A stretch of DNA of 64,000 nucleotides, from NCBI GenBank assembly GCA_938083505.1, contig CALKCF010000007.1, forward strand, positions 118,715 to 182,714. The letters run 5' to 3'. The position numbers and the translations under genes were made by a program. The notes beneath the pieces were generated by a model. That model was not told the origin of the DNA. It saw only the letters and a list, made by a program, of their open reading frames with translations, and made no database searches. Positions 9,762 through 63,624 of the stretch are shown here, piece by piece (the first letter of the stretch is position 1; the number at the start of each line of letters is the position of its first letter). The stretch comes from an uncultured archaeon (lineage in GTDB: Archaea > Thermoproteota > Nitrososphaeria_A > Caldarchaeales > Wolframiiraptoraceae).

Positions 9762-9848
9762 GCAGTCCGACTTACGCTTTATTTACACGATATATTAACT
9801 TATTGTGTTACGAAAGTTTTTATAAGAATTGTTACAGGTATTCTCGAA

Positions 9849-11039: not shown

Positions 11040-11720
11040 TAGCCTAGCCTCAAATACTACGGCCGTCCAGCAAGGCCTCATGTACTTATCGTACACTATG
11101 CTGGCGTTCGGTAGTTTAGCTATGTAGGTCTCCAAATTTTTCAAAAGTTTGCTGAAAGTAACGATTATGTATCCCATGCATTTATAACTCATGCCTAACT
11201 GGACGAACGTCTTAGTCGTTATGTCTATGCCGACTATTGATATTGTCGGAATTATGAGTCTGCCACCCGGTCTCAGGTGTTCCTTCGCACCTTTTAAAAC
11301 AGTGTTCAAAACCATCCTACCATCTGGCCCTCCATATGTCTCGGGTTTCAATGGTTTTGGCGACGGAGTCATGGGTGGATTTGAAATTATTACGTCAAAG
11401 TATTCGTCTTCTACAGGCTCGTAAAGATTTCCTTGTCTAACATCGATATTATATGCGGCGTTCAGCTCTGCGTTAGCTTTTGCCATCGCTACAGCATCGG
11501 GTGAAATATCCGTAGCCACACAACTTCTAGCACCAAGCTTAGATGCTACTATCGCCAAAAAGCCGCTACCAGTGCCTAAGTCTAAAACATGCTCATCACC
11601 TTTTAAGGTGATACAGCTCGCAATCAACTTCGAGACGGCTAATGGTCGGTAAACCCTTTTGTCATCGTAAAGCTTAATCGTCAGGTTGCCGACCTTTACC
11701 GTCATTAGTCTCCTGTACAT
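11031..11720 (-). CDS. HemK/PrmC-like SAM-dependent methyltransferase
   Basis: LDLGTGSG, SNPPM, GGPDG. Confidence 0.85.
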   Translation of the reverse strand: MYRRLMTVKVGNLTIKLYDDKRVYRPLAVSKLIASCITLKGDEHVLDLGTGSGFLAIVASKLGARSCVATDISPDAVAMAKANAELNAAYNIDVRQGNLYEPVEDEYFDVIISNPPMTPSPKPLKPETYGGPDGRMVLNTVLKGAKEHLRPGGRLIIPTISIVGIDITTKTFVQLGMSYKCMGYIIVTFSKLLKNLETYIAKLPNASIVYDKYMRPCWTAVVFEARLLS

Positions 11721-11867
11721 GGCCGAGCTAACTATGGTTTGGTATCACGATTACCCTTCTATATGTTGTACGGATTTATAGTTAAGCTTTAAGGATGACT
11801 AAAAACACGGTAGAATATGAGAAGAGAAGACAGGCATATAAATAAGATGTACTTGAAGTTTTATACA

Positions 11868-11941
11868 GGGCCGGTAGCTCAGTCTGGAAGAGCACTCGGT
11901 TTGCACCCGAGAGGTCCGGGGTTCAAATCCCCGCCGGTCCA
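11868..11941 (+). tRNA. tRNA-Ala(TGC)
   Basis: GGGCCGG/CCGGTCC acceptor stem with G3:U70, anticodon arm CTCGG-TTTGCAC-CCGAG, GGTTCAAATCC T-arm, followed by oligo-T. Confidence 0.97.
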
Positions 11942-12067
11942 TTTTTTAAGTGAATCCTTTAACTGAATGAAGGTTAAAAGAACGGAAAGAGAAATCCCAT
12001 TACAAATAGATGTAGTGGGCGGATAGACATCTTCTTACATTGCAGAAAAATTCCGAATCCATTCCTC

Positions 12068-14089: not shown

Positions 14090-14097
14090 GAGAATGC

Positions 14098-14832
14098 TTA
14101 GCGGTACAAACTACGCAAAGAGCTTATGAGCGATGGCACGTCTTGCTTAAGCGATAGAACGAACGGTAGGGCTTCTTGCTCTGCTAGTATTATAGCTAAC
14201 TCGTCTACGTCCTCAGGTTTCTTAGGTCCGTGGATCACAATCATCCTGGGCTTTATCGGATATATCTTCACAGCGATTATTGGTGAGCGACCTCTACTGA
14301 CACCGACGAAGACCAACACCCTCATGGAATTCGTACCGAATAGTTTCAGAAAATCCGTCGCGTCCATGAACTTTATGGCATTCAGGCTGTCCACGACAGT
14401 ATATCCGTATACTGGCTGGTTCTGCCCTTCCTTGCCAGCCAGAATTATGCCCTCCACGGCTTCTACAACATCTTTTACGGACTTTGTCCCAGGAAACTCT
14501 GCTATGTCTAAGATTACGTTGCTGAGGTCTTTCGTCGTTGTCGTGAACTTCTTTATATGAACCCCGCCCTTTTTAGAATCTATCTCTATCAATGCGATGA
14601 CGAATTTTCTAAGGAAGATAGTTCCTGGTGATTTTCTTCTATTTTTTTCGTAGTCGTTTAAAACCGATGGCGCTATGCCCATATGCTTGGCCAGCTCGCT
14701 CTGGTTAAGCTCGAACAGAAGTCTCCATTTCTTCATCACTTCACCGGGAGTTTTAGAGAGTATGATCTCGCCAGCTATCCTATTCATTAGGGCCTCTTCT
14801 GACGCTCCATACGGGCCAGCTGGGCTATCCAT
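14098..14832 (-). CDS. XRE-type HTH transcriptional regulator (COG1709-like)
   Basis: IAGEI.LS..PG..MKKWR, QSELA..MG..PSV..DYE..RRKSPG, GRSP.IAVK. Confidence 0.85.
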   Translation of the reverse strand: MDSPAGPYGASEEALMNRIAGEIILSKTPGEVMKKWRLLFELNQSELAKHMGIAPSVLNDYEKNRRKSPGTIFLRKFVIALIEIDSKKGGVHIKKFTTTTKDLSNVILDIAEFPGTKSVKDVVEAVEGIILAGKEGQNQPVYGYTVVDSLNAIKFMDATDFLKLFGTNSMRVLVFVGVSRGRSPIIAVKIYPIKPRMIVIHGPKKPEDVDELAIILAEQEALPFVLSLKQDVPSLISSLRSLYR

Positions 14833-46284: not shown

Positions 46285-46299
46285 TGGACCGGGCGGTAT
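46285..46299 (+). repeat. att-like direct repeat copy 1 (TGGACCGGGCGGTAT)
   Basis: Identical to 58623-58637; reverse complement resembles a tRNA-Ala 3' end. Confidence 0.85.
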
Positions 46300-46311
46300 G
46301 CAATTAAATAA

Positions 46312-46325
46312 TTAAGCGAATCCTT
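46312..46325 (+). repeat. Left inverted repeat (TTAAGCGAATCCTT)
   Basis: Exact reverse complement of 58600-58613. Confidence 0.85.
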
Positions 46326-46326
46326 T

Positions 46327-46900
46327 TTAGAGTTTTCTTATTTTTCCTGTTTGTGGTTGGTATATTTGGCCTTGTTGTGTTAGGCGCCATATGGCTGTTT
46401 CAACAGCCGCCTTTTCCGGGCTCTCCTCTTCATAAGCCCGTTGGACAACTTCTTCTATTGTTATTGTTTTATTTTGGAGGTTTTCCATGAGCCATTTCAT
46501 GGCTTGGCTTTAAGCCTTTAGTCTGTATTGTTTGGGTTTCCAAAGCTCTTTTCTGGGCGGGCTAGCTACCTCTGCTTGAATCGTTTGGGCGCTTACTGTT
46601 GTAGCCTGCGTTGTTTGCGGCTAGTAGTCCATTAGGGTTATGGTTGGCACGGCTTTCTCTTTCAAGAGTTCTGGCAGCTTCCTGTTTAGGCTGGCTTATT
46701 ATTCGCTTCATTTTTCTTGCTCTTGAAATGCTTGACCAGTAGAAAGCCTCGTCAACCGTGTCTTCGGCTATTAGGATTGTTACTTTTCCTGCCACGCGTC
46801 TTCCTGTTATGCCCCTGCGTTGTATGTAGCGTATCTCGCTTGGAACAGGCTCATAAAAGACTACGTGGTCAACTTCAGGAATGTCTAAGCCTTCCCCGTC
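46327..46900 (-). pseudogene. C-terminal fragment of Hef/FANCM-like helicase ending in a wHTH
   Basis: EGLDIPEVD.V.FYEPVPSEIR.IQRRG.TGR (motifs V/VI); frameshifted tail ..AIWRLTQQGQIYQP..GKIRKL. Confidence 0.75.
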
Positions 46901-47042
46901 CCCCGTAGCATTTGCCACAGAGCAGTTGAAGATTCAACAAGTCATCCGCATACAAGTGGAGATTCTCGGTGGAACCACAATTTTGACATTTACCGCCTAA
47001 CTTTTCCATTAGAAGCTGACAGACTCGCCTACTCACACGCAT
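46875..47042 (-). pseudogene. Degenerate HNH endonuclease remnant
   Basis: Hand translation ..LGGKCQNCGSTENLHL..NLQLLCGKCY; central HH segment deleted. Confidence 0.6.
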
Positions 47043-47437: not shown

Positions 47438-48640
47438 CTATTGAATCACCTTTTTAATGACGTCAAACCGTTTAGGGTCTCCCTGTAGCACCCCAATCAT
47501 AATAACTAAAAAGTTCAAGAAGGTAGTTATCTTTGTTGCAATCGCCGCCAATAATCCGTGCTTCCACCCCATCACTTTCCCTATACTCCAAAACCTAAGC
47601 GCATACCATGAAGCCACAGATGCTAAACCAATAACGGATTGCTCCCAGGTGAGGTGTAAGAGTCCAACTAATGAAAGAAGAAGCCCCAATTGGGAAAAAG
47701 GATAGAAAACGAACGCGCAGAAGTGGACGAAAATAAACCTTAATGCATGGTTTAGAGGCAACATTCTTTTTATGTAAACGATGTTGAAGTTGCCCCATAT
47801 CCACCTTCTTCTCTGTTTCACCGCGTCTTTGAAGGAAAGAGGTGGAGTTATCAAGACAGGCTTATCCGAGTTATAAACCTTAAAGCCTGCAACCTCTGCC
47901 TTATGAAGCCAGTACATGTCCTCATTGCCCATTACAGGAACGTTCTCCAAAGTTTTGCCGTTGATGGGTTTAAATTCGTAGTCTAAGGCTTGCTCCACAT
48001 ACTTGTAATATATTTGAGATTCGCCGTGTCCATACAAAACCCGTCCAACATTAGTGAAGAAGTTGCAAGTGTGCATGCAAGTGTAGGGTCGTTCATAGTC
48101 AAGCAGCAGCCCAAACTTTGAAGTTGTCCTAGGCTTAATTGTCCCGACAACAACGTCTGCATCTACGCTTAAAGCGTCAAGTATTAATTCTCGGCTAACC
48201 ACTGAGTCGTCGTCGCTTTGTATCACCATGTACTTGGATGGAAGCAAACCTTTTTCAGCCAGTTGCAGCCTATACCGACGCGCATACTCTAAAGCTCTAG
48301 CTTTCACGTGGGCGAAACATTTGAAAGCTTTCGGGACAACGACTACGCGGTCAGCGTTGTATCTTGTCGGGTTGTCTCCTTCTTCAATCACTACCCAACA
48401 CTGCAACGGCAGAGGCAAATCATATTTGCGAACCGTGTCAAAAATTTTGTTAACACATTCAGCGTTACCAACCGTTGGAATTTGGAGGATTATTAGGTCT
48501 GCTTTGTCGTTATGGGGGTTAAAACGCTTAAACTTCTTTGCGCTAACAGCTCCAATAACTGCTTCCGCCAGAAAGAATAATGGAGCAAACCATGAAGCAA
48601 GAATTAACCATTTAACTATTTCAAAAATGATGCTTAACAT
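47438..48640 (-). CDS. Membrane GT2 glycosyltransferase (egghead-like)
   Basis: KARALEY, DDDS, ED, QRRRW, flanking TM helices. Confidence 0.85.
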   Translation of the reverse strand: MLSIIFEIVKWLILASWFAPLFFLAEAVIGAVSAKKFKRFNPHNDKADLIILQIPTVGNAECVNKIFDTVRKYDLPLPLQCWVVIEEGDNPTRYNADRVVVVPKAFKCFAHVKARALEYARRYRLQLAEKGLLPSKYMVIQSDDDSVVSRELILDALSVDADVVVGTIKPRTTSKFGLLLDYERPYTCMHTCNFFTNVGRVLYGHGESQIYYKYVEQALDYEFKPINGKTLENVPVMGNEDMYWLHKAEVAGFKVYNSDKPVLITPPLSFKDAVKQRRRWIWGNFNIVYIKRMLPLNHALRFIFVHFCAFVFYPFSQLGLLLSLVGLLHLTWEQSVIGLASVASWYALRFWSIGKVMGWKHGLLAAIATKITTFLNFLVIMIGVLQGDPKRFDVIKKVIQ

Positions 48641-49370
48641 TTTCGTTAACCATCTCCGCCGCTTCTAGAATTTTAGGGTTCAAACCGTTTCGCCGAAAAT
48701 CATTAATCAAATGTTTAACGTCTTTCGGTAGGCATCTGCCTCCGTAAGGTTTTCCAAAGAATTTTGTTCCCCATTTGCCGCCTTCCCATTCACCTAAAAC
48801 CTTCGCTGGGTCACATGCCTGTGCAACAGTTTTAATGTCGGCTCCTATCTTTTTGCAAAGTAGGTAAAGCTCGTTCCAGAAGCTTATGCTCACAGCCCTA
48901 AGCGAGTTGGTTGAAAGTTTTATCAGCTCGCTTGTCGTCGGATCTGTGCGGTAAACTGTTGTGGTTAAAGGGGCGTAGAGCCTTTCAAGCTGTTCTCCGT
49001 GCTTATGGCAGCATTCACCTATAACAATTCTTGAAGGGTTCACCACATCCTTCAAGGTGTGTTTTTCTCTGAGGAACTCCGGGTTGTGGCAGATGTGGCG
49101 CTTATATTTCTCCATTAAAGTTTTAGTTGTCCCCACTGGAACTGTGCTTTTAATAACGTAAAGTCCTTGAACTTCAATTTCAATTAACGTTTGCAAAGCT
49201 TTCTCCACCTCATGTTCAGGAGTGCAGATGAAGGTTGCGTCCACCTCTTTTTCGATTTTGTTTTTACCTTTGAACGGGTCATAGATGAACGTTTGGTGTC
49301 CCAGCTTCCGCATTAGGTACGCTTGTGCGGAGCCAACTACGCCGTAGCCGACAATTTGAATTTTCATCAC
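48621..49370 (-). CDS. Short UDP-glucose/GDP-mannose dehydrogenase
   Basis: GYGVVG, KSTVPVGTT, NPEFLRE, SE.IK, GG.CLPKD; no C-terminal domain. Confidence 0.85.
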   Translation of the reverse strand: MMKIQIVGYGVVGSAQAYLMRKLGHQTFIYDPFKGKNKIEKEVDATFICTPEHEVEKALQTLIEIEVQGLYVIKSTVPVGTTKTLMEKYKRHICHNPEFLREKHTLKDVVNPSRIVIGECCHKHGEQLERLYAPLTTTVYRTDPTTSELIKLSTNSLRAVSISFWNELYLLCKKIGADIKTVAQACDPAKVLGEWEGGKWGTKFFGKPYGGRCLPKDVKHLINDFRRNGLNPKILEAAEMVNENVKHHF

Positions 49371-49712: not shown

Positions 49713-49952
49713 GGCTAACCAACCCCTTTTAATGTTTGGGTGTAGTGGTTTAGAGTGCCACTCGATAAGCCCTTATTCCTGTGCACACAGCTTGAATTGC
49801 ATATACTCCTTCCACATTTCATAAACGTAGCCTTCCTTGAATGTTAGGAGGTAGCCCCTAACCCATTCGCCCTTCGAAGAGGCTGCAAATTTGCCTCCTT
49901 TGCTGAACCTCTCCAAAAATTTCAACCTCGAATGGGTAGGGAGCCCTCTCCA

Positions 49953-50796
49953 CTAACCTACACCCTTAAAGATTTCTACAGCTTTTGGAATTGAAACCTT
50001 CTCTTCCTCTGTTATTCCGCGGTAGAACTGGACTGTTGTGTCAAAACCTCGAGTGCCTAGCCACATACTTGCTTACAAGGTCTAAGGGGACCCCTCTGTT
50101 TCTCAGGCTTGTAATTCGCGAATGCCTCAAGATATGGGGCCTTAAATCTCTGCCCCGGAATTCTATCCCGGCCCTCTTGCAGTCCATCTTAAAAGCCATT
50201 TCAACAGCTCTCGCAGTTATCTCGAAAAGCTTCTGTTTCCCGAGAATATTGTCGTATTTTAGCAGCATTTCCTTGATCCATGGCTCAAGCTTGTATGTAG
50301 CCTTCTCCTCCCTTTTCTTCTTCAAAATATTGAAAGTGATTGTGCCTTTTTCGAGGTCCAAATCTTTCCTTGTTAGGGCTAATACTTCGCCTAGACGGCG
50401 GGCGTAAGCGTAGCATAAAGCGTAGATAATCCTGCGGATCGGCGAAGGCGTGTTGGTGATAAGCCTCGCAGCTTCATCATCCGTTAAGAAGTCAACCTCT
50501 CCAACATTGCGGGGCGGAATCCTCTTCTTCAAAAGTTTAAGCTTCTTCTCATCCACGTCTAGCATCATGATTTCAAAGTAGCTGAGAACATCATAGGTGT
50601 AGACGCCCAATGTGCTGCTGCTTAAACCACGCTTCAGCAGCTCGTCAATCCAGAGGTTAAGCGACTCAAGGCCTGGCTGCAAACCATTCTTCTCGAGGAA
50701 ACTGTCGTATTGTTTTAGGACTACTTCTTTCCGCTGTAAACATGATTTGGGATAGAGATCCTTAGCTCTAAACTTGAAGGTTTTAATGTCAAGCAC
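49953..50796 (-). pseudogene. Tyrosine recombinase/integrase, frameshifted before the catalytic Tyr
   Basis: R..E, HILRHSR, VARH; removing one T of T4 (~50043-50046) restores HSRFDTTVQFYRG.. Confidence 0.85.
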
Positions 50797-50831
50797 AATT
50801 ATTAAAATTTAATAAAGGGAATATAAAAATT

Positions 50832-51041
50832 TCAGCCCATGAGTTTCGCCAATTCTTCCTTCAGAAGCTTTCGCTCTTCTTCTGTGAAGACCTTTCTGAT
50901 TTCCTCTCGGACCTCATCCTTAACCGAGTCGCCTTGAACCAGAATCTTTGTTAGAAGCTCTATGCATATGGTTTTCTTGCTGTCCTCTTTTATGACGGCG
51001 CATACTCTGCGGGCTGTTTCGCGGGCCATCAATTCAATCAC
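50832..51041 (-). CDS. Small helical Cys-pair protein (paralog of next ORF)
   Basis: LM..E....VC..C...L.KILV.G shared with 51038..51247. Confidence 0.65.
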   Translation of the reverse strand: MIELMARETARRVCAVIKEDSKKTICIELLTKILVQGDSVKDEVREEIRKVFTEEERKLLKEELAKLMG

Positions 51042-51247
51042 TCAACACCCAGCTCCCTCAACCTCTCCTTAACGGTTTTCCTGCAGTCTTCCGGAAGCTC
51101 GGCTAAGGCTTCAAAGCCTTTGCCTTCCACGAGGATTTTGTGGAGAACCGCTCTGCACTTAGCCTTGTTCGCTTCTCCAACGGCTTCACAGACGTCCTCA
51201 ACAATTTCCTTAGACATCAGAACCTTGATCCCCTCCTCGTCGTTCAC
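51038..51247 (-). CDS. Small helical Cys-pair protein
   Basis: Coupled 4-nt overlaps with neighbours, SD GGAGGTG. Confidence 0.65.
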   Translation of the reverse strand: MNDEEGIKVLMSKEIVEDVCEAVGEANKAKCRAVLHKILVEGKGFEALAELPEDCRKTVKERLRELGVE

Positions 51248-51641
51248 TCCAACACCTCCTTTAATATTTTTAATGCTTTACGCTTAAAAGCTTCCGGCGG
51301 AGTCAAATACTCCTCAAGCCTATCCATCTTCAACTTTTCAGCCCTAAGCAATGTTTCGCCTAGGACTGTTGCCTCGCTTCCACGCTTCATCCTTCTAGGA
51401 CTGTGTTCAGGGATTCAGCAAAGCGGGTGCAGAAAGCCTCAGGCTTCTTTTCAGCCTCCCTTATAACCCTGTCAAAGAGTTTAAGGTAAACGTCATCCAT
51501 GTTTTTTATGCTGGCATAATACATCAAGTCCGTAAGCCACCTGATGGCTTCGCTTGCACGATCCTTGGATAAGGCCTCGAGGATTTTTGCTGTGGCCTCT
51601 AACAAGACCTGCTTAGGCTCAGCTTCCAATACGTTCACCAA
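51244..51641 (-). CDS. Hypothetical helical protein: 84-aa + 48-aa coupled ORFs, or one frameshifted gene
   Basis: ORF 51387..51641 followed by ATGA-overlapping 51244..51390 (MKRGSEATV..KEVLE). Confidence 0.5.
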
Positions 51642-51686
51642 ACAAGAATGGTGGAAACAAAAATAAAAATGCGTCGAATATGGCTG

Positions 51687-52136
51687 TTAGGCGTTCTCTG
51701 CTCCGATAATGATTATGTCGAAACTGAAGCTTGTGATGCCGCCTATGTTTGAAGCAACTGAAAGTGTTAAATCTGCTGATACGCTATCTCCAGGATCTGA
51801 AACTTGGTCTTGGCGGTTCTAACTTAAAGTCAGATAGTTTGAAGCTGACGATGGATTCCAGTTGTCGACTTCCATGCTCAGCCTAATTGGAACATTGCCT
51901 TCATTCTTCACGTAGACCGTGAACTGTTTACTTGAGCCTGGCTCCAGAAAGCCCCAATCGATATACGATACTGGAATGGTGCAACCGCTGTCGGAGTAGA
52001 CGCCTACACCAACAGCCTTTATATTCCCAACGCTGGAAATTATCCGCTTGGCAACAAGGGCTCCCAACACTGTTGCAACTATACATACAAGGGCGATTGC
52101 CAAAACCGTTGCCAAAGCGATTCTATGCATCGCCAT
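51687..52136 (-). pseudogene. Secreted beta-sandwich surface protein with in-frame TAG
   Basis: Signal peptide, IDWG.LEPG, KNEGNVP; frame continues 43 codons past TAG at 51819-51821. Confidence 0.7.
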
Positions 52137-52409
52137 GTTCTTCACCAGCAAGAGCTTAGCAGAAAAAGAGGGGGAATGCACCAGGCGCCAGGCAAGTTGT
52201 CTACATGGCTTCAAAGGCTGCCTTCATGTTCGAGAAAAGCTTCTCAAACACGAGCTGGTAGACTACCTGATAACATCCAGGATAATTAAGCCTCTCGTCA
52301 ACCTCCTCAACATTTTAATAAAAGCCAGAGAAGCCGAAATCTACAAAGAAAAAGAGAAACTCGTAGAAATCTTCTCAAAAATCATTTAATCACTCTGACA
52401 AATCGTCCT

Positions 52410-54025: not shown

Positions 54026-54541
54026 TCATGGGTTTAGGTGTTGAGTTTGCGAGAGTTTTGGCAAGGGGATGGCTGGAACTGAAAGGATCTCCCCCTTAGC
54101 CATTATGTATTCGAACCCTCCCCCCACCTCCTCAACCCAAAAGCCGAGGGCTACTGCCGGCTTAAGCTTCTTCGCCTCCCTCATGCTTTTCCATACTGTA
54201 ATTGAAGTGTCAAACTCGATTTTGCCAGCCCTGTTAGGCAGCTGTGGAAGGTGTTCCGCCAACTTTCTAGCTAGCTCATTAACGCTTTCGGCTGTAAGTC
54301 CAACGGTTGCTAGAGGCGCAACCCTCTCAATTATCCGCCTAATCACAACTTCTGGTATTCTAAACTCCCTGACAAGCTCCCCAATTCTTTCGGGCGGGAC
54401 GGCTGGCGCGGCTGGAGCGCCAATCCTCTCGGATATTGCCTGCAAAAGCTTTAACTGCTGCTCCTCAACCCTAAGAAGCAAAACGATTAGCTCGTCCACC
54501 CTTGTGAGAACGTCTAAAAGCCTTTGAATGGGGATCTCCAT
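54026..54541 (-). CDS. Hypothetical coiled-coil/Pro-Ala protein, probably 3'-truncated
   Basis: Last gene of the co-oriented cluster. Confidence 0.55.
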   Translation of the reverse strand: MEIPIQRLLDVLTRVDELIVLLLRVEEQQLKLLQAISERIGAPAAPAVPPERIGELVREFRIPEVVIRRIIERVAPLATVGLTAESVNELARKLAEHLPQLPNRAGKIEFDTSITVWKSMREAKKLKPAVALGFWVEEVGGGFEYIMAKGEILSVPAIPLPKLSQTQHLNP

Positions 54542-54567
54542 TGCAACCTTTCCGCTAGTTCAAGTTT

Positions 54568-54906
54568 TTACAGGTTGTAGGCTTGCAGCATAACTGAAAT
54601 AGTGTTTGCGCTGGCTACTGCCTTGATGTTTTGGCCAGGATTCATGGTGAAAAGGGGCGAATCCACAGACCTGTAAACGTCTAAAGTGGCATAGGCGTCT
54701 AAAGTTATGGGTGGAAGTGTCCTCTCAACCGTTGCTTCCCGTTCAATTGTAAGCGTCAGCGTGTTTGCAGTCGCCGCGTTGTTATGTATCAGCATACCAT
54801 AGACTTTTCGTGCAAACTTGTTAGGCGGAACCGTATTGTTTGTCAATGGAACCTTGCTTGTTCCGACTTCCGCTTCCATTTCGAAAGTGTCTTCGGGCTT
54901 GGCCAA
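54568..54906 (-). CDS. Hypothetical beta-rich protein (putative virion component)
   Basis: Alternating beta-strand pattern, 2-nt gap to the upstream gene. Confidence 0.6.
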   Translation of the reverse strand: MAKPEDTFEMEAEVGTSKVPLTNNTVPPNKFARKVYGMLIHNNAATANTLTLTIEREATVERTLPPITLDAYATLDVYRSVDSPLFTMNPGQNIKAVASANTISVMLQAYNL

Positions 54907-54908
54907 AC

Positions 54909-55628
54909 CTAGCTTCCTCCTGCTAAAACTCTCTCTATTGTGGCTTTGTCAACCTCTGTTGGGGGAGCCCATTCCTCTGGCACTGTCCACGTGAAGTGTC
55001 TGAGTCCTCCAACGGTTAGGAACCTGCATGGTGGCTTCTGCCTCAGCATTCCCTCGATCACGTTTCTGTTTGTTATTTGTATGGTGTCGTAGCCTGCTCC
55101 AAGAATGCGCATGCTTGGCCTTATGGGTCTTCCAGAGTCGTTCTTAAGCCCAATTTCTATGCTTAGCTTATGGTATAGAACGCATTCAGTAGCCACTGTG
55201 GGATTGTCATAGGGGCTCAGCCATCCCGGAATGTAATCGCGTTTGTCTCCAACTTTTGGAGGCTCAACCTTGTAGCCCCAGCCTGTCTGTGGCGTGCCCG
55301 CTGGAATACTCCTGTAAAGCCATATCTCGCTTGGTCTAATGCCAAATGCGAAATGCAGTATCCTGAAGGGCCTCTCCTCCCACACGGCCAGTATGTCAGG
55401 CTCCTCTCCCAGGGCTGTTTCTCCCATGATTTTGAAGTCAACTGTTTCTCCCTCGGGAATTTCCGGAAGCTCGCCGTCATAGGTTCTGTGAAGGGGATAT
55501 CTTCGCATGACACGGAAAAAGTAGAGGGCGAATACAGGCTCTTTAGCCACAGCCTTTGGAAGAATAATAGCCAAGTTCATGTTCTCGTCAAAGATAGACT
55601 CAACTATAGGCTTATTCAACTCAACCAT
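54909..55628 (-). CDS. Hypothetical beta-rich protein (candidate jelly-roll capsid protein)
   Basis: 239 aa, SD GGAGG, no TM; fold is inference only. Confidence 0.55.
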   Translation of the reverse strand: MVELNKPIVESIFDENMNLAIILPKAVAKEPVFALYFFRVMRRYPLHRTYDGELPEIPEGETVDFKIMGETALGEEPDILAVWEERPFRILHFAFGIRPSEIWLYRSIPAGTPQTGWGYKVEPPKVGDKRDYIPGWLSPYDNPTVATECVLYHKLSIEIGLKNDSGRPIRPSMRILGAGYDTIQITNRNVIEGMLRQKPPCRFLTVGGLRHFTWTVPEEWAPPTEVDKATIERVLAGGS

Positions 55629-55697
55629 ACAGTTTTTAACCTCCGTTCAGAAAAACTTCGGGAGTTCATTGTTTTGTTCAGCTCCCTGCAAGGGAAA

Positions 55698-55871
55698 CTA
55701 GCCCTTCTCAGAAGTGGTGGTCACGGTCACTGTTACTGGCGCGAAATCGTAGGCGGCTGTATCGGCTTCTCCGGCTGTAACTCCCCCATGCGTATGCGAT
55801 GGCAGGTCAACAGTAACCGTTACTGAATGTTTATGTTGCCTGTGCCCTGCAAGGTATCCGGGTTTTGGCAT
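55698..55871 (-). CDS. 57-aa HxH-motif spike/needle-like protein (missed by ORF track)
   Basis: MPKPGYLAGHRQHKHSVTVTVDLPSHTHGGVTAGEADTAAYDFAPVTVTVTTTSEKG; SD AGGAGG. Confidence 0.7.
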   Translation of the reverse strand: MPKPGYLAGHRQHKHSVTVTVDLPSHTHGGVTAGEADTAAYDFAPVTVTVTTTSEKG

Positions 55872-55883
55872 TTATTCAGCCTC

Positions 55884-56582
55884 CTATGCGCCTGGTCTGG
55901 CTAGTGCTGGCACATCTTTGCCGTAGCCTATCCATACGCCAACCGGAAACGCGTAGGTTGTAACAGTAGCGCCTGCGGTTTTCGACTCAACCTTTCCATC
56001 AATGTCTAACGTTGCATCGGCGATAACTGGGTGTGGAAACTCGAAAACCTGCATATCCGTAGCCTTCATGATAAGGGTGGCTTCAATGGGGTACTGTGGA
56101 ACTCCATCCACATCCACAACTTGAACAGCCGTCAAGGGAGCTGTGGGGCTAAGCTCTATTATGTCCGTGATGATGAAGATCTGCTTTGCCGGAATCGTTA
56201 GTTTGCCGGCTGTTGGGGGAATAATGTTGAAGGTTCCAACGTATTTCCCAGCGGCAAGCGTTATATCCCTTTCATACGTGAAGTTTTCGCCTATGTGTTC
56301 TGGTCGGAGCTGCATCAAAACAATGTCGTCGCTCTTAGCATATTGAAGCGGCATAATGTTACGCTTCTCCTTCTCCTTAAACTCGGCTAAGACCTGGCAG
56401 ACAAGCTCAAGGTTCCTCGTCAAACCCGGAACCTCAAAAGTTCTCTCCGAAATATTCAACGTCCTAATCTTCGCCAACTCATGCTTCACAATGTCGTATT
56501 CCGTCCCAAAAGGCTCAACCTTGCGGCTGAGAACAGACTTGGCATCTATCTCGAGCAACCTCTTTAACTCTTCAATTTCCAT
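55884..56582 (-). CDS. Hypothetical protein, helical N-terminus + beta-rich C-terminus (candidate capsid protein)
   Basis: 232 aa, first gene after an AT-rich promoter-like gap; fold is inference only. Confidence 0.55.
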   Translation of the reverse strand: MEIEELKRLLEIDAKSVLSRKVEPFGTEYDIVKHELAKIRTLNISERTFEVPGLTRNLELVCQVLAEFKEKEKRNIMPLQYAKSDDIVLMQLRPEHIGENFTYERDITLAAGKYVGTFNIIPPTAGKLTIPAKQIFIITDIIELSPTAPLTAVQVVDVDGVPQYPIEATLIMKATDMQVFEFPHPVIADATLDIDGKVESKTAGATVTTYAFPVGVWIGYGKDVPALARPGA

Positions 56583-56654
56583 ACAACCAACTCCATTTAA
56601 CAGCTGGAAAAGAATATTAAAATGATGGTATCAGTAAGTATTGGTTAGACTAAA

Positions 56655-56816
56655 ATGGCTGAGGAGCTGGTTTTCACGGCTCAGGTTCAAAAGATCTACA
56701 GAATAGCCATACCGAGAACAATTTATAAGGCGTTGGATATTAAGCCCGGAGACTATGTTGAGGTTAGAGTAAAGAAGGTCAGCATCAAGCCTAAGGGATA
56801 CCCGCTAACTCGCTGA
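56655..56816 (+). CDS. AbrB/MazE/SpoVT family DNA-binding protein (missed by ORF track)
   Basis: MAEELVFTAQVQKIYRIAIPRTIYKALDIKPGDYVEVRVKK.. Confidence 0.85.
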   Translation: MAEELVFTAQVQKIYRIAIPRTIYKALDIKPGDYVEVRVKKVSIKPKGYPLTR

Positions 56817-56839
56817 AACTTAAATTTCTAGCTTTGACA

Positions 56840-57172
56840 TCAGCGGCTCATTACGTAGCCTGTCTTCGGCTTCTCCTTTTCAGCCCCTGAAAGCTGATAC
56901 TCGGCTTTTCTCTCTACGCTGGGCAGGATATCCTCCAGCTTAGGGAGGGTTGGGAGTTTACCGAGAACCTCAGGCAGCTTAGGCGCCCTTGGAACAACAG
57001 CCTCAGGAGCCTTTCCAGCCTCTAAGGAAGTTTGAAGTTTCAAGAGGGTTGACTGCGGACCTGGAGGCAGCTCCACCTTCAAGGCTTCTTTAACCAAGCT
57101 TTCAAACTGGCTTTCAGGCGCTGCCAAAAGCTGCGTGAAGGATGATATTTTGGGAAGCTCCTGCGGAGGCAT
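56840..57172 (-). CDS. Pro/Leu-rich hypothetical protein
   Basis: Abuts the upstream stop; repeated LP.L motifs. Confidence 0.6.
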   Translation of the reverse strand: MPPQELPKISSFTQLLAAPESQFESLVKEALKVELPPGPQSTLLKLQTSLEAGKAPEAVVPRAPKLPEVLGKLPTLPKLEDILPSVERKAEYQLSGAEKEKPKTGYVMSR

Positions 57173-57424
57173 CTACTTCTTCACTGCCTTTGTAGGCACG
57201 TCGAGGGCTTGGGCTATACCCTCGCCTATGTTTTCAATGGCAGTTCCAATACTCTTTGCAATGCTGTCAGCCACCCTGTGGGGACCAGCAGAGCCCAACG
57301 GCCCCTTATCTATAGCTGAAGACACAGATTCGGACAGCTCCTTTGGAACACGTACTAGGCTGTCTAAAACGTCGTCCGCAACCCTATGTGGAGGCTTAGC
57401 CGTTAAATCGGGGAGTTCGGGCAT
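57173..57424 (-). CDS. Hypothetical protein with internal PHRVAD repeat
   Basis: PPHRVADDVLDSL / GPHRVADSIAKSI. Confidence 0.6.
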   Translation of the reverse strand: MPELPDLTAKPPHRVADDVLDSLVRVPKELSESVSSAIDKGPLGSAGPHRVADSIAKSIGTAIENIGEGIAQALDVPTKAVKK

Positions 57425-57436
57425 TCAACCACCAAA

Positions 57437-57772
57437 TCAATAATAAACGTTCATATTTTTAATTTTTTCTATTCCGTAAAAACCTTTAATGCAGCTAAAA
57501 ACTGAGGGCAGCCACTTATTCTCCTTAACGAAGCGCTCGTACTCTTCAGGCTTCATCAAACGCTTAAGCTCGGCGTAAGCCATATCCGACGCCACGTCGC
57601 CGGCGAATGGTATGACGTCTGCGAGGTCGTCCATCAAAGCGTAGCGGAGAACCTCCCTCTGCCTATCATCAAGCTTTGGCATGGGTTTCGGAGGAAAATC
57701 TGGGAGCTCAACGCTTGGGAGCTCAACCTCTAAAAGCGGAATTTTAAACTTTTCCAAAATTTTTATGGGCAT
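57437..57772 (-). CDS. Hypothetical protein (possible late frameshift in a T5 run)
   Basis: Pro-rich N-terminus, D.IPF.GD motif; alternative end PSVLAALKVFTE*. Confidence 0.55.
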   Translation of the reverse strand: MPIKILEKFKIPLLEVELPSVELPDFPPKPMPKLDDRQREVLRYALMDDLADVIPFAGDVASDMAYAELKRLMKPEEYERFVKENKWLPSVFSCIKGFYGIEKIKNMNVYY

Positions 57773-57785
57773 ACTGCAAGCCTAC

Positions 57786-58538
57786 TTATTGAAGCTTAGA
57801 CCACGTTAAAAGCCCGTAGCCTTTATCGGCAGATTTCTCTCCGAAGCGAGCCATCCTAGCCTTAACATCTTCAATATTGCTGAGTATGCCCCTGTCTATG
57901 GCTAAAGCCGCAAGCCCTGAGCAATGGGGTGTAGCCATCGACGTGCCAATCATCAAGTCGAAGCCGTCTGGAACCAAGTCGTAGAAGGCGTCGTACCATA
58001 GGCTCACCGCAGCTACGATTTGGCTTTCTCTGTCTCCGCCTATGCCGGCTACATCTGGCTTCAAGAAGTTTCCCCCGTATTTTTGGTAGTCCCTGTCATA
58101 GGCGTCCTTGTTATCCCTGTACCATCTTGCTTGCGGCCCACGCGATGAATAGCTTGACGTTTCCATTGTCTTCCAGTCTACGGCAGCCACACATAAAACG
58201 TATGGGCTGGCTCCCGGGCTGTTTATGCTCCATTCCTCGCCGTCGTTTCCAGCCGCGACTATGAAGTTTGTGCCATACTGCCTGTAAAGCTTCTCAGCCA
58301 AAACACATTCGGGATCCTCTTCAACGCTTCCCTCCAATGGACCGCCGAGACTCATGTTCACAACCTTACAGCCTTTCACTGCGCACATCTCCATAGCCTT
58401 CATGATCTGGAAGCTTGAGCATGGACCAAATGCGGTGAACACTTTAACATGGTAGCTGGATGGAGCCAAAGCCACGGGAATGAAGGTTCCATACCGTGAG
58501 AGGCATGGTTGACCGAAGGCGCATGAATGGGCCCAGCT
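57786..58538 (-). pseudogene. Subtilisin-like S8 peptidase, C-terminal extein (5' part deleted)
   Basis: VNMSLGG, AAGN, SSRGP, KPDV, GTSMATPH; catalytic Asp/His region absent. Confidence 0.85.
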
Positions 58539-58607
58539 ATTATGAACTATGAAACCGCTGGCCGAATAGTTGCCATATGTTGTATCCGCTAAATCGTAGA
58601 AGGATTC
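58539..58607 (-). other. Intein C-terminal splicing region (blocks F/G)
   Basis: In frame with the peptidase: ESFYDLADTTYGNYSASGFIVHN|S. Confidence 0.8.
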
Positions 58608-58613
58608 GCTTAA
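58600..58613 (-). repeat. Right inverted repeat
   Basis: AAGGATTCGCTTAA = reverse complement of 46312-46325. Confidence 0.85.
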
Positions 58614-58622
58614 AAAATTAAG

Positions 58623-58637
58623 TGGACCGGGCGGTAT
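58623..58637 (+). repeat. att-like direct repeat copy 2
   Basis: TGGACCGGGCGGTAT identical to 46285-46299. Confidence 0.85.
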
Positions 58638-58837
58638 CTACACTTAATTGGGTGCGAGTCCACATTGTACGGAGTAATTTGAAAGGATTCAGGGAATGCG
58701 GTCGAAAAAGCGAGGGTCTAGGCTTCTCCATATAGCTGAAGGAAGCAAATGAAAAGACTGCTCGAGGTGCTGACGAAAATTTTTATCATCCACCGAATGC
58801 CATCATCGGTGAAGCGTTAGGGAGGGAATAAGGGGAG

Positions 58838-61800
58838 TTGAGGAAACTCCTTAGCTTAGGAATAATCTTCCTGCTTCTTACTTCAATCCTAGCGAATTTT
58901 GTTCCCGCTCTTCCCATTGAAGCTCAACAGCAGAGCTATGGATGGAAAGATGAGTTTAACTATCGAGGTTTGGACGAGGTGCAGGAAATCAAGCTTGTTA
59001 ATGATAGGCAATTTACTTTTGATGGCGGAGATGATTTTTATCCATTATGGAGCCCCGATGGATCAAAACTCCTCTTCTTGCGCGCAGTACCTTCTCTTGA
59101 GGAATGGAATGCTTCTTTATGGATTTCAGACCTTAAGGGAAAATTAATTGGCCCAATGATGGGAACGGTACTCACTGATGTTGGATGGAGTCCAGATAGC
59201 ACCAAAATCGCTTATTCGTCACTCAAAGTGAGGTATTCAGTCAGGTATTCTTGGAACTATTTTTGGGATGAATTACACATTTTTGATACTTCGACATCGG
59301 AGGATAAGGTAATTCTGACTACAGGAAAGAATGAGACGATTTCTTATCGTCTTTTAGCCCCTACAAGAAGTTTGGATTGGTTACCAAGAGGTGGAGGAAT
59401 AGTGTTCACACATTTCAGCATGTTTCGGCCTCAATTACCATTTTTCGCGAAAAGTCAAATCAACATCATTAGTGAGGATGGAAAATATCTTAAAACTCTT
59501 GTGGAAAGGGATGTGAGAACCGACCTCAGCATTATAAGTGACCTATTTGTTAGCAGTAGCGGGGATATTATTGGATTTTCAGAAATTCGTTTCAGTGAAT
59601 TGCCTCTGCAACCATACTCCGAGTCGATTAATCGACTATGGCTTATGAATGTTGATGGAAGCAATCAGCAATTAATTTTAGAGCTTCCAAGCCATCCAGG
59701 CCTTTTTTCCCCAATAAAATCTATCAGCTTCTTAGATGAATCCAAGATACTCATTGAAAGATGGAATATTAGACTTCTTGAGGAGCCGCCTGGGAGAATG
59801 GATTTTGAAAAATTCGAAATCGGCATCATCGACATAAGCACCAAGAAATTTACATCACTACTAACGTTTTCCCTTGAAACAGTTCCTTTTAGCTTTATAG
59901 GAATTTCAAGAAAACAACCTTCATTTAACAATAAATTCCTTTATGCAAACATAACAACAACCGGTGATTACTCTGTGGAATATAGCATTTGGTTATTTGA
60001 TGTTAAAGACCATACTAAGAAAGTATTACTGTCTAAACCATTTAAAAGAGAGTGGTTAGAGAAATGGTCATTTCTCGTGCTATTATTTCTTTTTCACGGT
60101 GTTAGCGTAAGTCCTACTGGAGAAAGAATAGCCTACTTATATCCAGATGGTGAAGGTGAGCATATGAAGATCTGGGTAGCGGAGGTGGAAGGGCTTGCAC
60201 CTAAAGTAACGAGGCTTAATGTAGAAGTTGTTGATCCAAGTCCTCCAGATGGTGCTAGGAGAAGCCCACCAATAACTTTTAGGGCAAGGGTAACTTCTGA
60301 TGGCCAGCCTGTTCGGGATGCCTTCGTGACCTTCTACATGGGCGATGGCGGAACCAGTTATATTGGACAATCGAACATAAGAACGGATGCTAATGGCTAT
60401 GCTGAGGTTAGGGACTGGGATCCAAAATGGGATCATGAAGTAACATTTAGATGGTGGGCTGAAGCATGGAAGGAAGGATATGAAAGCGGAATATCGGAAA
60501 AGAGAAGTCTAATTTATGTTCCCGCATCTAAATTAGACATTACAGATATCGCTAGTGGTCCTTTTGGAGTTATAATCTTTAAGGTTAAGAATCAAGCGAC
60601 AAAAACGGTAAAGATAAACTCCTATGAGATATATGTAAATGATAAGAAGACAGGATGGAATGATAATGTATCTGAGGAATTGCCTAAAGGAGAAGAATAC
60701 TTATTTGTTACTCCCTTTTCTTTTAGCAGTTTAACTGAGGTAACGAAGGTAAAAGTAATAGTAAACTACAATGGGAAAGATAGTTGGTTAGAAGAGAGTT
60801 GGTCTGAGAGGGACGTTGAAGAAAGATTATTAAAGGCTAGAGATTATTTAAAGAATTTAGGTGTAAGGGATATACCTGAGGACATCCCAAAAATAAGCTA
60901 CCCAGCCAACGTGAAGCAACCATACTATGATTATGGAACAGATACCATATATGTACCAGTTAATTATACCCAGTCTGACTTTGTAATTTTGCACGAATAT
61001 GGACATTTTATCGAAGATAAGTGGTATTTGTTTAATATGCCAGATGATTGGGAGGGAGATTGCCAGAGAATTGGGAAAAAGAATGCTATGAAGGAGGGAT
61101 GGGCTCATTTTCTTGCCTCCCTTGCTCGAAATTCTCCAAAAATTCTTGAGGCGCAGCCTGTTGGAATTAATATGGATTTTGAAGACCCATTCTCTAATAC
61201 AATCTTTTGTGCTCATACAATGGATAAACGGCAAGAAAACGAAGCATGTGTTGTTTCAGTTGCAGGTATTTTCTGGGATCTTTATGACCCTGCTAATGAG
61301 GAGTTCGATCAACTTCAAATTTCACCAGAAGAGCTTGTATCTTTAATAAAAGAGAGTATGAAATGGAATAGTGAAGGGTTTAAAACATTTTACATCAATT
61401 TTAACGCCAAATATAGAGGAACCGATTTACCAGAAAAGCTTGATAAGTTATTACTGGAAGGATATGGCATCAGCTATATCAACCTGAAAACAGAATTTCT
61501 TGTAGCTTCACTTCACTCACCGGCAAATCTTCATGCATATGATTCTGAAGGTAAACATGTAGGAGTGAATGAACGGGGTGAAATAGAGATAGAGATACCG
61601 AATTCGTATTATACAGGTCCTGATGCTGAACCGGAGGAAATTATAATTTTCGGTCAAAGCGAGGGGATAACTTTTAAAATTGAGGGAATCGCTGAAGGTA
61701 ACTTCAGCCTATTAATAGAGCAGAAAAAGGATAATTACATAAAAAGAGTGGAGTACAGGAACATTTTTATCACAAACTCTACATATGCCATAGTTGAAAT

Positions 61801-62071
61801 AGGTCTTTCCAACCCTGAATATGTGATGTCCTTAGATTATGATAAAGATGGGATAATAGATGAGAAAAAGGTACCAAATGTGACAGAGGGGACTCTTCCT
61901 TCAGAAACGGTTGGACCATTTTTACTTTTGGAATGCTTTTATGTCTTTTTGACAATCGCTACAATAATCATTGCAGCTTTTTTAATACTAAAATTTAGAA
62001 AGAAGACTAAGATCAAGTCTGATAAAAACCGAGTAAATGAATTTAAATTCATCCTTTTAAGGACTTACTAA
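58838..62071 (+). CDS. Membrane-anchored surface protein: TolB-like propeller, Ig-like domains, zinc metallopeptidase
   Basis: Signal peptide; WSPDG/WSPDS repeats; HEYGH...EGWA; DYDKDG; C-terminal TM + basic tail. Confidence 0.75.
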   Translation: MRKLLSLGIIFLLLTSILANFVPALPIEAQQQSYGWKDEFNYRGLDEVQEIKLVNDRQFTFDGGDDFYPLWSPDGSKLLFLRAVPSLEEWNASLWISDLKGKLIGPMMGTVLTDVGWSPDSTKIAYSSLKVRYSVRYSWNYFWDELHIFDTSTSEDKVILTTGKNETISYRLLAPTRSLDWLPRGGGIVFTHFSMFRPQLPFFAKSQINIISEDGKYLKTLVERDVRTDLSIISDLFVSSSGDIIGFSEIRFSELPLQPYSESINRLWLMNVDGSNQQLILELPSHPGLFSPIKSISFLDESKILIERWNIRLLEEPPGRMDFEKFEIGIIDISTKKFTSLLTFSLETVPFSFIGISRKQPSFNNKFLYANITTTGDYSVEYSIWLFDVKDHTKKVLLSKPFKREWLEKWSFLVLLFLFHGVSVSPTGERIAYLYPDGEGEHMKIWVAEVEGLAPKVTRLNVEVVDPSPPDGARRSPPITFRARVTSDGQPVRDAFVTFYMGDGGTSYIGQSNIRTDANGYAEVRDWDPKWDHEVTFRWWAEAWKEGYESGISEKRSLIYVPASKLDITDIASGPFGVIIFKVKNQATKTVKINSYEIYVNDKKTGWNDNVSEELPKGEEYLFVTPFSFSSLTEVTKVKVIVNYNGKDSWLEESWSERDVEERLLKARDYLKNLGVRDIPEDIPKISYPANVKQPYYDYGTDTIYVPVNYTQSDFVILHEYGHFIEDKWYLFNMPDDWEGDCQRIGKKNAMKEGWAHFLASLARNSPKILEAQPVGINMDFEDPFSNTIFCAHTMDKRQENEACVVSVAGIFWDLYDPANEEFDQLQISPEELVSLIKESMKWNSEGFKTFYINFNAKYRGTDLPEKLDKLLLEGYGISYINLKTEFLVASLHSPANLHAYDSEGKHVGVNERGEIEIEIPNSYYTGPDAEPEEIIIFGQSEGITFKIEGIAEGNFSLLIEQKKDNYIKRVEYRNIFITNSTYAIVEIGLSNPEYVMSLDYDKDGIIDEKKVPNVTEGTLPSETVGPFLLLECFYVFLTIATIIIAAFLILKFRKKTKIKSDKNRVNEFKFILLRTY

Positions 62072-62681
62072 CTTACTACAATTAAAAGTGAAAGCATATC
62101 TTGCATTTATTTGCTTTACTCCTCCTTCTCCCCGAAGGATAATGTAACACCTCATCGCGTCTTCACTCTTAGGGAATTCTATACTACAATTTTCACTATT
62201 ATTTCCCAATACACATTTGCTACAGTAAGATAATACTACAGGTCTGCAGGAATTCCAATGTTCTTTATGAATGTGTGTAAATCGTATTCTAATAACAAAT
62301 CCCAAAATAAAAATGGTCGTGAGAAAAATCACATATATCAAGGAAACTTCAGGTCTAATTGTTTTTAACTTTCTGTAAATTATGACTAAACTGCAAGCGA
62401 CAATGTATGTAGAGAAAAACCAAAAAGGAGGAAGTATGAACGATTTTTTATGCATTTCACTTAATACAGGAACTCCAAATATTAAAAGTAACACTGATGT
62501 CTCGATTATTAGTAAAAAAGTAAATGCTTTTATAAAAATATTGTTGATATTATCACCTTTATCCACAAATAGCCAAAAATTCACAGAAGAAAAAAATGAT
62601 TCCAAAATTTAATAAGAGGAGAAATACTATGATCTTGAGTAAATCTGGCTTTAAGAACTCCTTAACGGCTTTCCAACCCAT
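62057..62681 (-). CDS. Membrane protein, probably frameshifted near the 5' end
   Basis: ORF 62057..62605 has 3 TM segments and a Cys-rich tail; upstream ATG 62681 (MGWKAVKEFLKPDLLKII..) is in another frame. Confidence 0.4.
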
Positions 62682-62940: not shown

Positions 62941-63624
62941 ATGGAATGGTTAAAGAAACTTGTCTCCAAATTGTTTAAATGGAATAGAGTTCCTCTAGAA
63001 ACTAAGTTGCAAGCGATAATAGATTGGCTTGAATGCTCCAGCTACAGGAAAGCCTCTAAAAAGCTTAGGTTGCAAGGTAAAAGGGCGAGCAAATCTTCCA
63101 TTTGGGAATGGGTCAATAAGCTTGCTAAAGCAATAGAGCTAAGAATTCCAAAAAAGGAGAGGGAATTTGTTGCCATGGATGAAACTTGCTTCAAAGCCAA
63201 TGGAGCTAAAGTCTTCATCTACTCTGCTTTGGATGTTGAGGAAAGAATTTGTCTTGGAGCTAAGGTATTTACCTCCAGGAATTATTTTACCACTAGCCTT
63301 TTCCTTGAGAAAGTTATGGTAGTATGCAAGAATAAGCCCACTTTCCTTGTTGATAAGGGTCCTTGGTATAAAGAGGTTTTTGAAAGCAGGCAAATTCCCT
63401 ACCAACATGTAACCTGGGGGAAGAGAAACCTGGTTGAGCGCTTCTTTGGTAGCTTAAAGCAAAGAACCAGGTTATTCTTCAACAACATCAATGTTAACTT
63501 CAAGCTTTTGCTTAAGCGCATGGAAGCTGGACTAAGAGATGGGGTAGCTATGCAGAGAATTGACCTCTTCCTAAAGCTATTTGTACATTGGTTCAATGAA
63601 ACAGGAAAGCCTAGAATGCCCTAG
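62941..63624 (+). CDS. IS6-family DDE transposase
   Basis: SYR..S, W.WV, DET..K.NG, DKGPWY, RN.VER.F..LK.R. Confidence 0.9.
   Translation: MEWLKKLVSKLFKWNRVPLETKLQAIIDWLECSSYRKASKKLRLQGKRASKSSIWEWVNKLAKAIELRIPKKEREFVAMDETCFKANGAKVFIYSALDVEERICLGAKVFTSRNYFTTSLFLEKVMVVCKNKPTFLVDKGPWYKEVFESRQIPYQHVTWGKRNLVERFFGSLKQRTRLFFNNINVNFKLLLKRMEAGLRDGVAMQRIDLFLKLFVHWFNETGKPRMP

Follow-up and report, generated by a model that had tools for sequence, protein, structure and literature searches.

A truncated subtilase gene that keeps the end of an intein at its catalytic-histidine motif in a Caldarchaeales genome, and the intein insertion sites of its protein family

The surviving subtilase tail

The window analysed here is a stretch of 64,000 nucleotides from a Caldarchaeales genome, and its end is also the end of contig C7 (182,714 nt). 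The minus strand contains a frame of 283 open codons (58637–57789), which reads IPPGPLNFLS, then ESFYDLADTTYGNYSASGFIVHN and then SWAHSCAFGQPCLSRYG; on re-reading, the transcription and the coordinates of this frame in the first-pass annotation proved correct. An in-frame TAG (58640–58638) shuts the frame upstream, and no ATG, GTG or TTG occurs before GTG 58475–58473, which gives a called ORF of 229 aa. The profile of Peptidase_S8 (Pfam PF00082) matches residues 64–248 of the frame with an E-value of 2.4e-21, and the alignment with subtilisin BPN′ begins at residue 50 (E 1.8e-11).

The C-extein and its stop codon (57788–57786) occupy 57786–58538 on the minus strand and are equivalent to residues 236–485 of P0001, a full-length relative; the protein identity is 93% to P0001 residues 233–485. 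All 250 codons are free of stops and frameshifts. Both the oxyanion motif AAGND (Asn codon 58247–58245) and the catalytic-serine motif GTSMATPH (Ser codon 57941–57939) are kept. A complete Asp-His-Ser triad was not found in the window, as the IDTG and GHG motifs belong to the missing 5′ part. Thus, the fragment lacks Asp and His and cannot act as a protease.

The intein stump

Upstream of the called ORF, the minus strand at 58607–58539 reads ESFYDLADTTYGNYSASGFIVHN, followed by SWAHSCAFG. These are the last 23 codons of a LAGLIDADG-type intein at the HG↓S site (the arrow marks the insertion point), comprising blocks F and G and the terminal His-Asn. The last intein codon, Asn, lies at 58541–58539 and the +1 Ser at 58538–58536, so that the C-terminal splicing motif FYDLADTTYGNYSASGFIVHN↓S is present in the window. 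The stump is identical at 21 of 23 residues to the C-terminal end of the intein in the relative P0125 (BLASTP, E 4e-13, a single comparison), which bears out the earlier reading of blocks F/G, terminal His-Asn and +1 Ser. The Hint-domain profile agrees: Intein_splicing (PF14890) matches the 23 residues at profile positions 134–155 of 155 with an E-value of 0.0064 and 16.7 bits, which does not reach the gathering score, in keeping with so short a stump. The match to TIGR01443 (E 0.21) is below the cut-off.

DNA comparisons give the same limits. The intein-bearing allele L003 is homologous up to 58607, where the intein likeness ends, and homology to the G087 allele, which has no intein at the HG↓S site, ends exactly at 58538. 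The DNA identity of the stump is 78% to the P0125 allele and 72% to the P0122 allele, over 69 nt only; we considered these values as a signal of recent homing and rejected it, because 69 nt is too short. Codon 2 of the stump encodes Ser where the relatives have Tyr, and it forms part of the microhomology at the junction described below. Neither the N-terminal Cys/Ser1 nor the block B TxxH motif occurs in the window or elsewhere in the assembly; thus, the window contains an intein remnant and not an intein. The LAGLIDADG motifs (PF14528) are likewise lost from the window and are present in P0122, P0125 and others.

Intact relatives with and without an intein at the histidine motif

The closest full-length relatives, P0001, P0003 and P0004, are 90–93% identical over 89% of the query and come from metagenome bins labelled Thermoproteota/Bathyarchaeia. 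Intein-free relatives have 480–490 aa (485 aa for the closest). P0001, P0003 and P0004 read ...EPPVDTMGHG SWTHSCAFGQPCLSRYG, and in the alignment GHG runs into SWTHSCAFG without interruption. Identity between the window and these homologues starts at the Ser, and the 31 preceding residues of the window have no counterpart in the intein-free relatives, so the segment is not a normal part of the protein. When P0001 is aligned to solved subtilisins, IDTG corresponds to Asp32, GHGS to His64-Gly65-Thr66 and GTSMA to Ser221, which places the break at the Gly65–Thr66 bond of the catalytic-His motif.

Longer relatives (810–890 aa) carry precomputed Intein_splicing and LAGLIDADG_3 domains, and homologues of 864–888 aa have an intein of 381–400 aa, from Cys1 to [H/S]N, with a LAGLIDADG endonuclease at HG↓S/T. 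A complete intein at HG↓[S/T]W is present in 18 relatives (P0122, P0125–P0129, P0139, P0144, P0154 and nine further). Their inserts range from 150 to 440 aa, and each starts with Cys, has a TxxH motif (mostly TPWH) and ends with [H/S]N. The HG↓S inteins follow the pattern C...TPWH...LAGLIDADG...FYDLA..NY.A.GF.V[H/S]N; that of P0125 ends in EYFYDLADTTEGNYSASGFIVHN↓SWCHACAFG. Pfam scans of P0122, P0125 and P0144 and the precomputed annotation of P0154 identify Intein_splicing and/or LAGLIDADG_3, with PF14528 at an E-value of 2e-12 in P0122 and P0125 and matches in others as well. The first-pass annotation had placed an intein at the catalytic-His motif of a subtilase; in the relatives the junction is exactly HG↓S, or HG↓T, and the claim stands.

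The upstream boundary

The ten residues that precede the stump, IPPGPLNFLS, are an in-frame but unrelated read-through of 58608–58637 on the minus strand. This segment shows no homology to the subtilase or intein alleles compared, and derives from a copy of a tRNA-Ala 3′ end and its flank. Positions 58623–58637 hold one copy of a 15-nt direct repeat, TGGACCGGGCGGTAT; the other lies at 46285–46299, and the genome has no third copy. The last 12 nt of the 15-mer equal the 3′ end of tRNA-Ala(CGC) on another contig (C1:101732–101743, 12/12 nt). Next to it, an 18-nt segment (58617–58600, minus) matches the sequence downstream of tRNA-Ala(TGC) at 11942–11959 of the window in 17 of 18 nt, and this flank copy overlaps the first stump codons. 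The 3′ end of a tRNA gene with its flank is the kind of sequence used as an attachment site by integrase-type elements. The boundary therefore looks like an attachment-site scar, judged from these matches, rather than a transposon inverted repeat. A tRNA gene itself was considered as the boundary feature and rejected: neither ARAGORN nor Rfam detects one around 58.6 kb or 46.3 kb, where there is only a 3′ fragment of 12–15 nt.

The first-pass annotation held that the 5′ part of the gene was lost at the right inverted repeat of an element. A 14-nt exact inverted repeat, AAGGATTCGCTTAA, does exist, with its right arm at 58600–58613 and its left arm at 46312–46325, starting 12 nt after the 46285–46299 repeat copy. 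As a boundary it does not hold: its length is at chance level, and the boundary sequence is the tRNA-Ala copy instead. Exact 14-nt inverted pairs number 34 in the window versus 13 in simulated sequence; a stretch of 64 kb is expected to contain such matches by chance. Of the right arm, 8 nt are intein codons. Direct pairs of 15 nt number 3 in the real sequence versus 2.6 in simulation, and one such pair is within chance. The pairing of the 15-mer with the inverted repeat at both loci is beyond chance, at about 1e-5 by our own estimate. We also considered a transposon- or casposon-type element and rejected it, on account of arms that lie 9–12 nt off the 15-nt repeats, a match of chance length, a repeat of tRNA-Ala type and a tyrosine integrase as the element-type enzyme among the ORFs scanned (see below).

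The join itself falls inside the 8-mer GAATCCTT, which in intact intein alleles corresponds to GAATACTT or GAGTACTT. A join within the GAATCCTT microhomology accounts for the unusual Ser at a position where Tyr is conserved, and the probable cause is a microhomology-assisted or off-target site-specific deletion. The 15-mer att core, allowing at most two mismatches, is absent from the intact relatives L002–L005; thus, these do not explain the boundary. The right flank (58640–62100) has no match in six congeners and the left flank is already non-syntenic among them, so that no empty site is definable.

Some further observations concern the tRNA-Ala genes. The motif TTAAG[C/T]GAATCCTT occurs after tRNA-Ala(TGC) and again beside both tRNA-Ala-like 15-mers (11942–11959, 46312–46325 and 58600–58617), and a related motif, GAGTGCGAATACTT, occurs after tRNA-Ala(CGC) on C1 (C1:101672–101760). 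An ORF approximately 70 nt downstream of tRNA-Ala(CGC) is a possible start of a second tRNA-Ala-targeting integrated element.

The virus-like element around the gene

The subtilase tail lies in a block (54079–58538, minus) that is colinear with the intact elements L002 and L068 at 87–88% identity (blastn). In the comparison with L002, window positions 58551–54079 correspond to 9629–14098 at 88% identity; homology to the second relative, the G087 contig (L068), ends at the same left point, 54079. Besides the subtilase tail, the block encodes three small proteins, a jelly-roll protein of 232 aa and further ORFs of 57, 239, 112 and 171 aa, and it includes an AbrB/MazE-like gene on the opposite strand. 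In the intact relative L002, which is 15.3 kb long, the subtilase is accompanied by a tyrosine integrase, ParA and a series of proteins of unknown function. A second block of the same element family (49794–52256, plus) matches the L002 integrase block, but in the opposite relative orientation. Its tyrosine integrase gene (50041–50796, minus) is 90% identical to the L002 integrase and is the element-type enzyme among the ten larger minus-strand ORFs that were scanned from 46.5 to 56.6 kb. A T-run near 50041–50046 contains one T too many, which shifts the frame of the window integrase and removes the last 29 residues; with them goes the only tyrosine after the break (in TTVQFY), presumably the catalytic Tyr. 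The frameshift reflects either a pseudogene or a homopolymer sequencing error.

The GC content is 0.47–0.50 in the 54–59 kb region versus 0.30–0.39 to the right. Of 400 further genomes sampled across the phylum, only 1 has the subtilase gene, a distribution consistent with a mobile element. Pfam and PHROGs searches with the structural-looking ORFs of the element gave no match. The AF2 model of the 232-aa neighbour (55884–56582, minus; pLDDT 89.5) consists of helices and a jelly-roll sandwich, and its best fold matches are weak (SPV1 capsid chain, Z 5.5; IBDV VP2, TM 0.32); the model suggests a candidate capsid protein of the element. The nearest clusters in the ESM Atlas are unnamed and mostly viral, and IMG/VR contains only distant relatives of the subtilase (41% identity or less).

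Other ORFs were observed on both sides of the block. To the right, 58838–62071 (plus) encodes a protein of 1077 aa with a hydrophobic segment at the N-terminus, a membrane anchor at the C-terminus and an HEYGH (HExxH) motif, in low-GC DNA without a match in six same-genus genomes. It is followed by an ORF (62941–63624) that is transposase-like by eye, and the contig ends at 64000. To the left are two ORFs that are short for their families. The match of the first (46562–46918, minus) to the Helicase_C profile is confined to the C-terminal end of the profile, and the second (48621–49370, minus; 249 aa) matches UDP-glucose dehydrogenase, an enzyme that is considerably longer in its intact form. 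The two att-like repeats enclose both ORFs, and the 46–59 kb region as a whole looks like accreted broken mobile DNA.

A relic and the alternatives to it

We searched the assembly, which comprises 10 contigs and 1.15 Mb and is 98.5% complete, for the missing 5′ part. Genome searches and tblastn with six alleles found neither the N-extein (approximately 235 aa, with Asp and His) nor the N-terminal part of the intein (approximately 360 aa) in the window or on any of the 10 contigs. The missing part could lie in unassembled DNA, and a chimeric join at the repeated att-like sequence is possible. Since the C-extein has no stop or frameshift and keeps 93% identity, the truncation is either recent or an artefact. 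The frame of the stump lacks a start codon, Asp, His and the N-terminal splicing half; thus, it neither splices nor cleaves. In all probability, the window copy is a dead 3′ relic of a protease gene from a decaying integrated virus-like element in a small archaeal genome.

The stop-free C-extein would also be expected if the contig had been misjoined at the att-like repeat and the gene were intact in the real genome or virus population. The assembly is of metagenome type with 10 contigs, the break coincides with sequence that is repeated at 46285–46325 and resembles the flank at 11942–11959, and the GC content falls from about 0.49 to about 0.38 just past the break. Nevertheless, we consider such a misjoin unlikely, given that the missing 5′ part is on no contig of the assembly, that the junction contains a plausible microhomology, and that the element block is also broken at 54079 and the integrase frameshifted, which indicates general decay.

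We considered two other readings. The stump and C-extein could be translated alone as part of a natural split intein and be trans-spliced to an N-extein and IntN made elsewhere; indeed, approximately 30 residues ending in HN and running into a C-extein superficially resemble the IntC-extein of split DnaE. Only 21–23 of these residues are intein-derived, though, and the preceding 10 come from the tRNA flank. With no start codon between TAG 58640–58638 and GTG 58475, which is downstream of the stump, no N-extein/IntN partner anywhere in the genome and a contiguous intein in 18 of 18 relatives with an HG↓S intein, a split intein is highly improbable. The remaining reading, that there is no intein and that VHN-SWAHSCAFG is a degenerate native H-G-T motif of an ordinary subtilase extending upstream, is hardly credible at all. 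It could draw on H-N-S suiting several positions of the subtilase His signature and on a BLAST alignment that runs 13 nt beyond the boundary against an intein-free allele (9/13 matches). Against this, no intein-free homologue has an equivalent of the 21 residues that precede the H, the 23 residues match the end of Pfam-verified inteins at 21 positions, and homology to the G087 allele stops precisely at the Ser codon. We therefore retain the relic of an intein-bearing gene as the reading of the locus.

Inteins across the subtilase family

An exhaustive, profile-free search with P0001 (E ≤ 1e-30) gave 78 cluster representatives, 66 of which have at least 400 aa. Cleanly delimited inteins are present in 18 of these 66 near-full-length representatives, a count that leaves out three further long representatives. 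Insertion sites were surveyed in 279 family proteins and the G087 genomic allele. There are seven sites, and six of them lie at or beside a residue of the catalytic triad (Asp, His, Ser) or the oxyanion Asn. Inteins interrupt the catalytic Asp motif at VLD↓TG (n = 3), the sequence four residues before the catalytic His at EPPxD↓TMGHG (n = 2), the catalytic His motif at HG↓S/T (n = 18), the oxyanion Asn motif at AAGN↓SG (n = 2), and the catalytic Ser motif at G↓TS and GT↓S (n = 10 in total, plus the G087 allele). The seventh site, LGFG↓ST (n = 2), is in the Gly100–102 substrate-binding strand according to our own sequence comparison with BPN′. In the GT↓S alleles the +1 nucleophile position is the catalytic Ser itself, and P0333 has two cleanly delimited inteins, at the His and Ser sites.

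Inteins at different motifs can be related to each other. Those at D↓TG and PPxD↓T share 31–36% identity with E-values down to 5e-64 (P0121 and P0123 versus P0145, P0364 and P0389), and those at AGN↓S and G(T)↓S share 27–32% identity with E-values down to 7e-49 (P0148 and P0394 versus P0124, P0302, P0327 and G087). These sequence relationships suggest that inteins move ectopically between active-site motifs with similar junction residues. The clade that is more than 90% identical to the window includes the empty P0001, P0121 with a PPxD↓T intein, G087 with a GT↓S intein and the HG↓S stump. The occurrence of an empty allele and three intein sites within such a clade points to fast intein turnover.

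Proposed history and function

On the preferred reading of the window copy as a relic, the intact gene would have contained a class-1 LAGLIDADG intein of approximately 380 aa between Gly and Ser of the H-G-S motif (485 aa without the intein). The conserved Ser/Thr of the motif would serve as the +1 nucleophile; by established intein biology, Cys1 and Ser/Thr would carry out splicing, with cyclization of the terminal Asn. Similarly, from intein biology, the LAGLIDADG endonuclease would cut empty alleles and drive homing when related elements share a cell. Both splicing and homing are probably active in the intact relatives. In the window genome, recombination would then have deleted all sequence 5′ of the last 23 intein codons, with the copy of the tRNA-Ala 3′ end and flank as one partner and the intein as the other, through the look-alike 8-mer (GAATCCTT versus GAATACTT in the intein). 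We infer this order of events, and microhomology as the cause of the break, from the sequence at the junction.

In the intact relatives, approximately 380 aa lie between His64-Gly65 and Ser66, and this would leave them without a catalytic triad until splicing. The first-pass annotation had proposed that the intein split the active site and that splicing would gate proteolysis. The first part is upheld, and the second fails for the window copy, a truncated pseudogene; gating by splicing would apply to the intact relatives only. More speculatively, and with low confidence, splicing may be the activation step of the protease and more than the exit route of a parasite: with inteins directly on Asp, His, the oxyanion Asn and Ser, the precursor may be a splicing-dependent zymogen and possibly a conditional switch (responding to temperature, redox state or time of infection), whose intein lineages hopped between motifs from D↓TG to PPxD↓T and from AGN↓S to G(T)↓S.

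Comparison with known inteins and protease precursors

What is new is the host protein; the intein belongs to the canonical class-1 LAGLIDADG type. Similar to Sce VMA1/PI-SceI and the DNA polymerase inteins of Thermococcales, the intact relatives have Cys1, TPWH and two LAGLIDADG-type motifs (PF14528). Blocks F/G with [H/S]N, a Ser/Thr at +1, in-frame insertion in a conserved active-site motif and empty alleles in close relatives are also shared with canonical class-1 inteins. The usual hosts of that class are replication, repair and ATPase proteins, whereas here the host is an S8 subtilase encoded by a virus-like element of archaea, and the window copy keeps only the last 23 codons. The cyanobacterial split DnaE inteins likewise have a short C-terminal intein piece fused directly to the C-extein; unlike in split DnaE, the piece in the window has no start codon and no partner gene, and is smaller than a functional IntC.

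Regarding proteases, the intein hosts given by Novikova et al. (2016; PMC4760082) are the chloroplast ClpP of Chlamydomonas eugametos and archaeal LonB, with no subtilase. In ClpP and LonB, too, an intein interrupts a serine protease whose activity requires splicing. However, ClpP (S14) and Lon (S16) belong to other protease clans, and the subtilase sites abut the Asp, His, oxyanion Asn and Ser, with the catalytic Ser as the +1 residue at one site. No report of a natural intein in a subtilase was found in a full-text search of incomplete coverage, and the family has probably not been described as an intein host before. The earlier statement that S8 proteases are unusual hosts is in line with the literature searched, but not with this particular S8 family, in which inteins are common (in 18 of the 66 representatives counted above). 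There is also a functional analogy, and only that, to subtilase zymogens with an I9 propeptide, since in both a segment has to be removed autocatalytically before the triad works; the difference is that proteolysis would here be replaced by protein splicing with religation. A search of the first 200 residues of P0001 for an I9 propeptide gave no match.

As a fossil, the window copy is of interest only in that it marks a decayed provirus. The family, on the other hand, is unusually rich in inteins. It would be a natural set of splicing-dependent protease precursors and a useful model for conditional protease activation, and it is a clear counter-example to the claim that inteins rarely sit at catalytic residues. 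It is also a compact system for intein homing, loss and ectopic movement, because alleles that are more than 90% identical occur empty or with inteins at three sites. Within the element relatives, inteins extend beyond the subtilase: they are found in ParA and in a 622-aa protein that is encoded between the subtilase and the next gene in a relative, and a free-standing LAGLIDADG gene is also present (intein and LAGLIDADG loci L003:6304–8169, L004:39–689 and L003:13129–13701).
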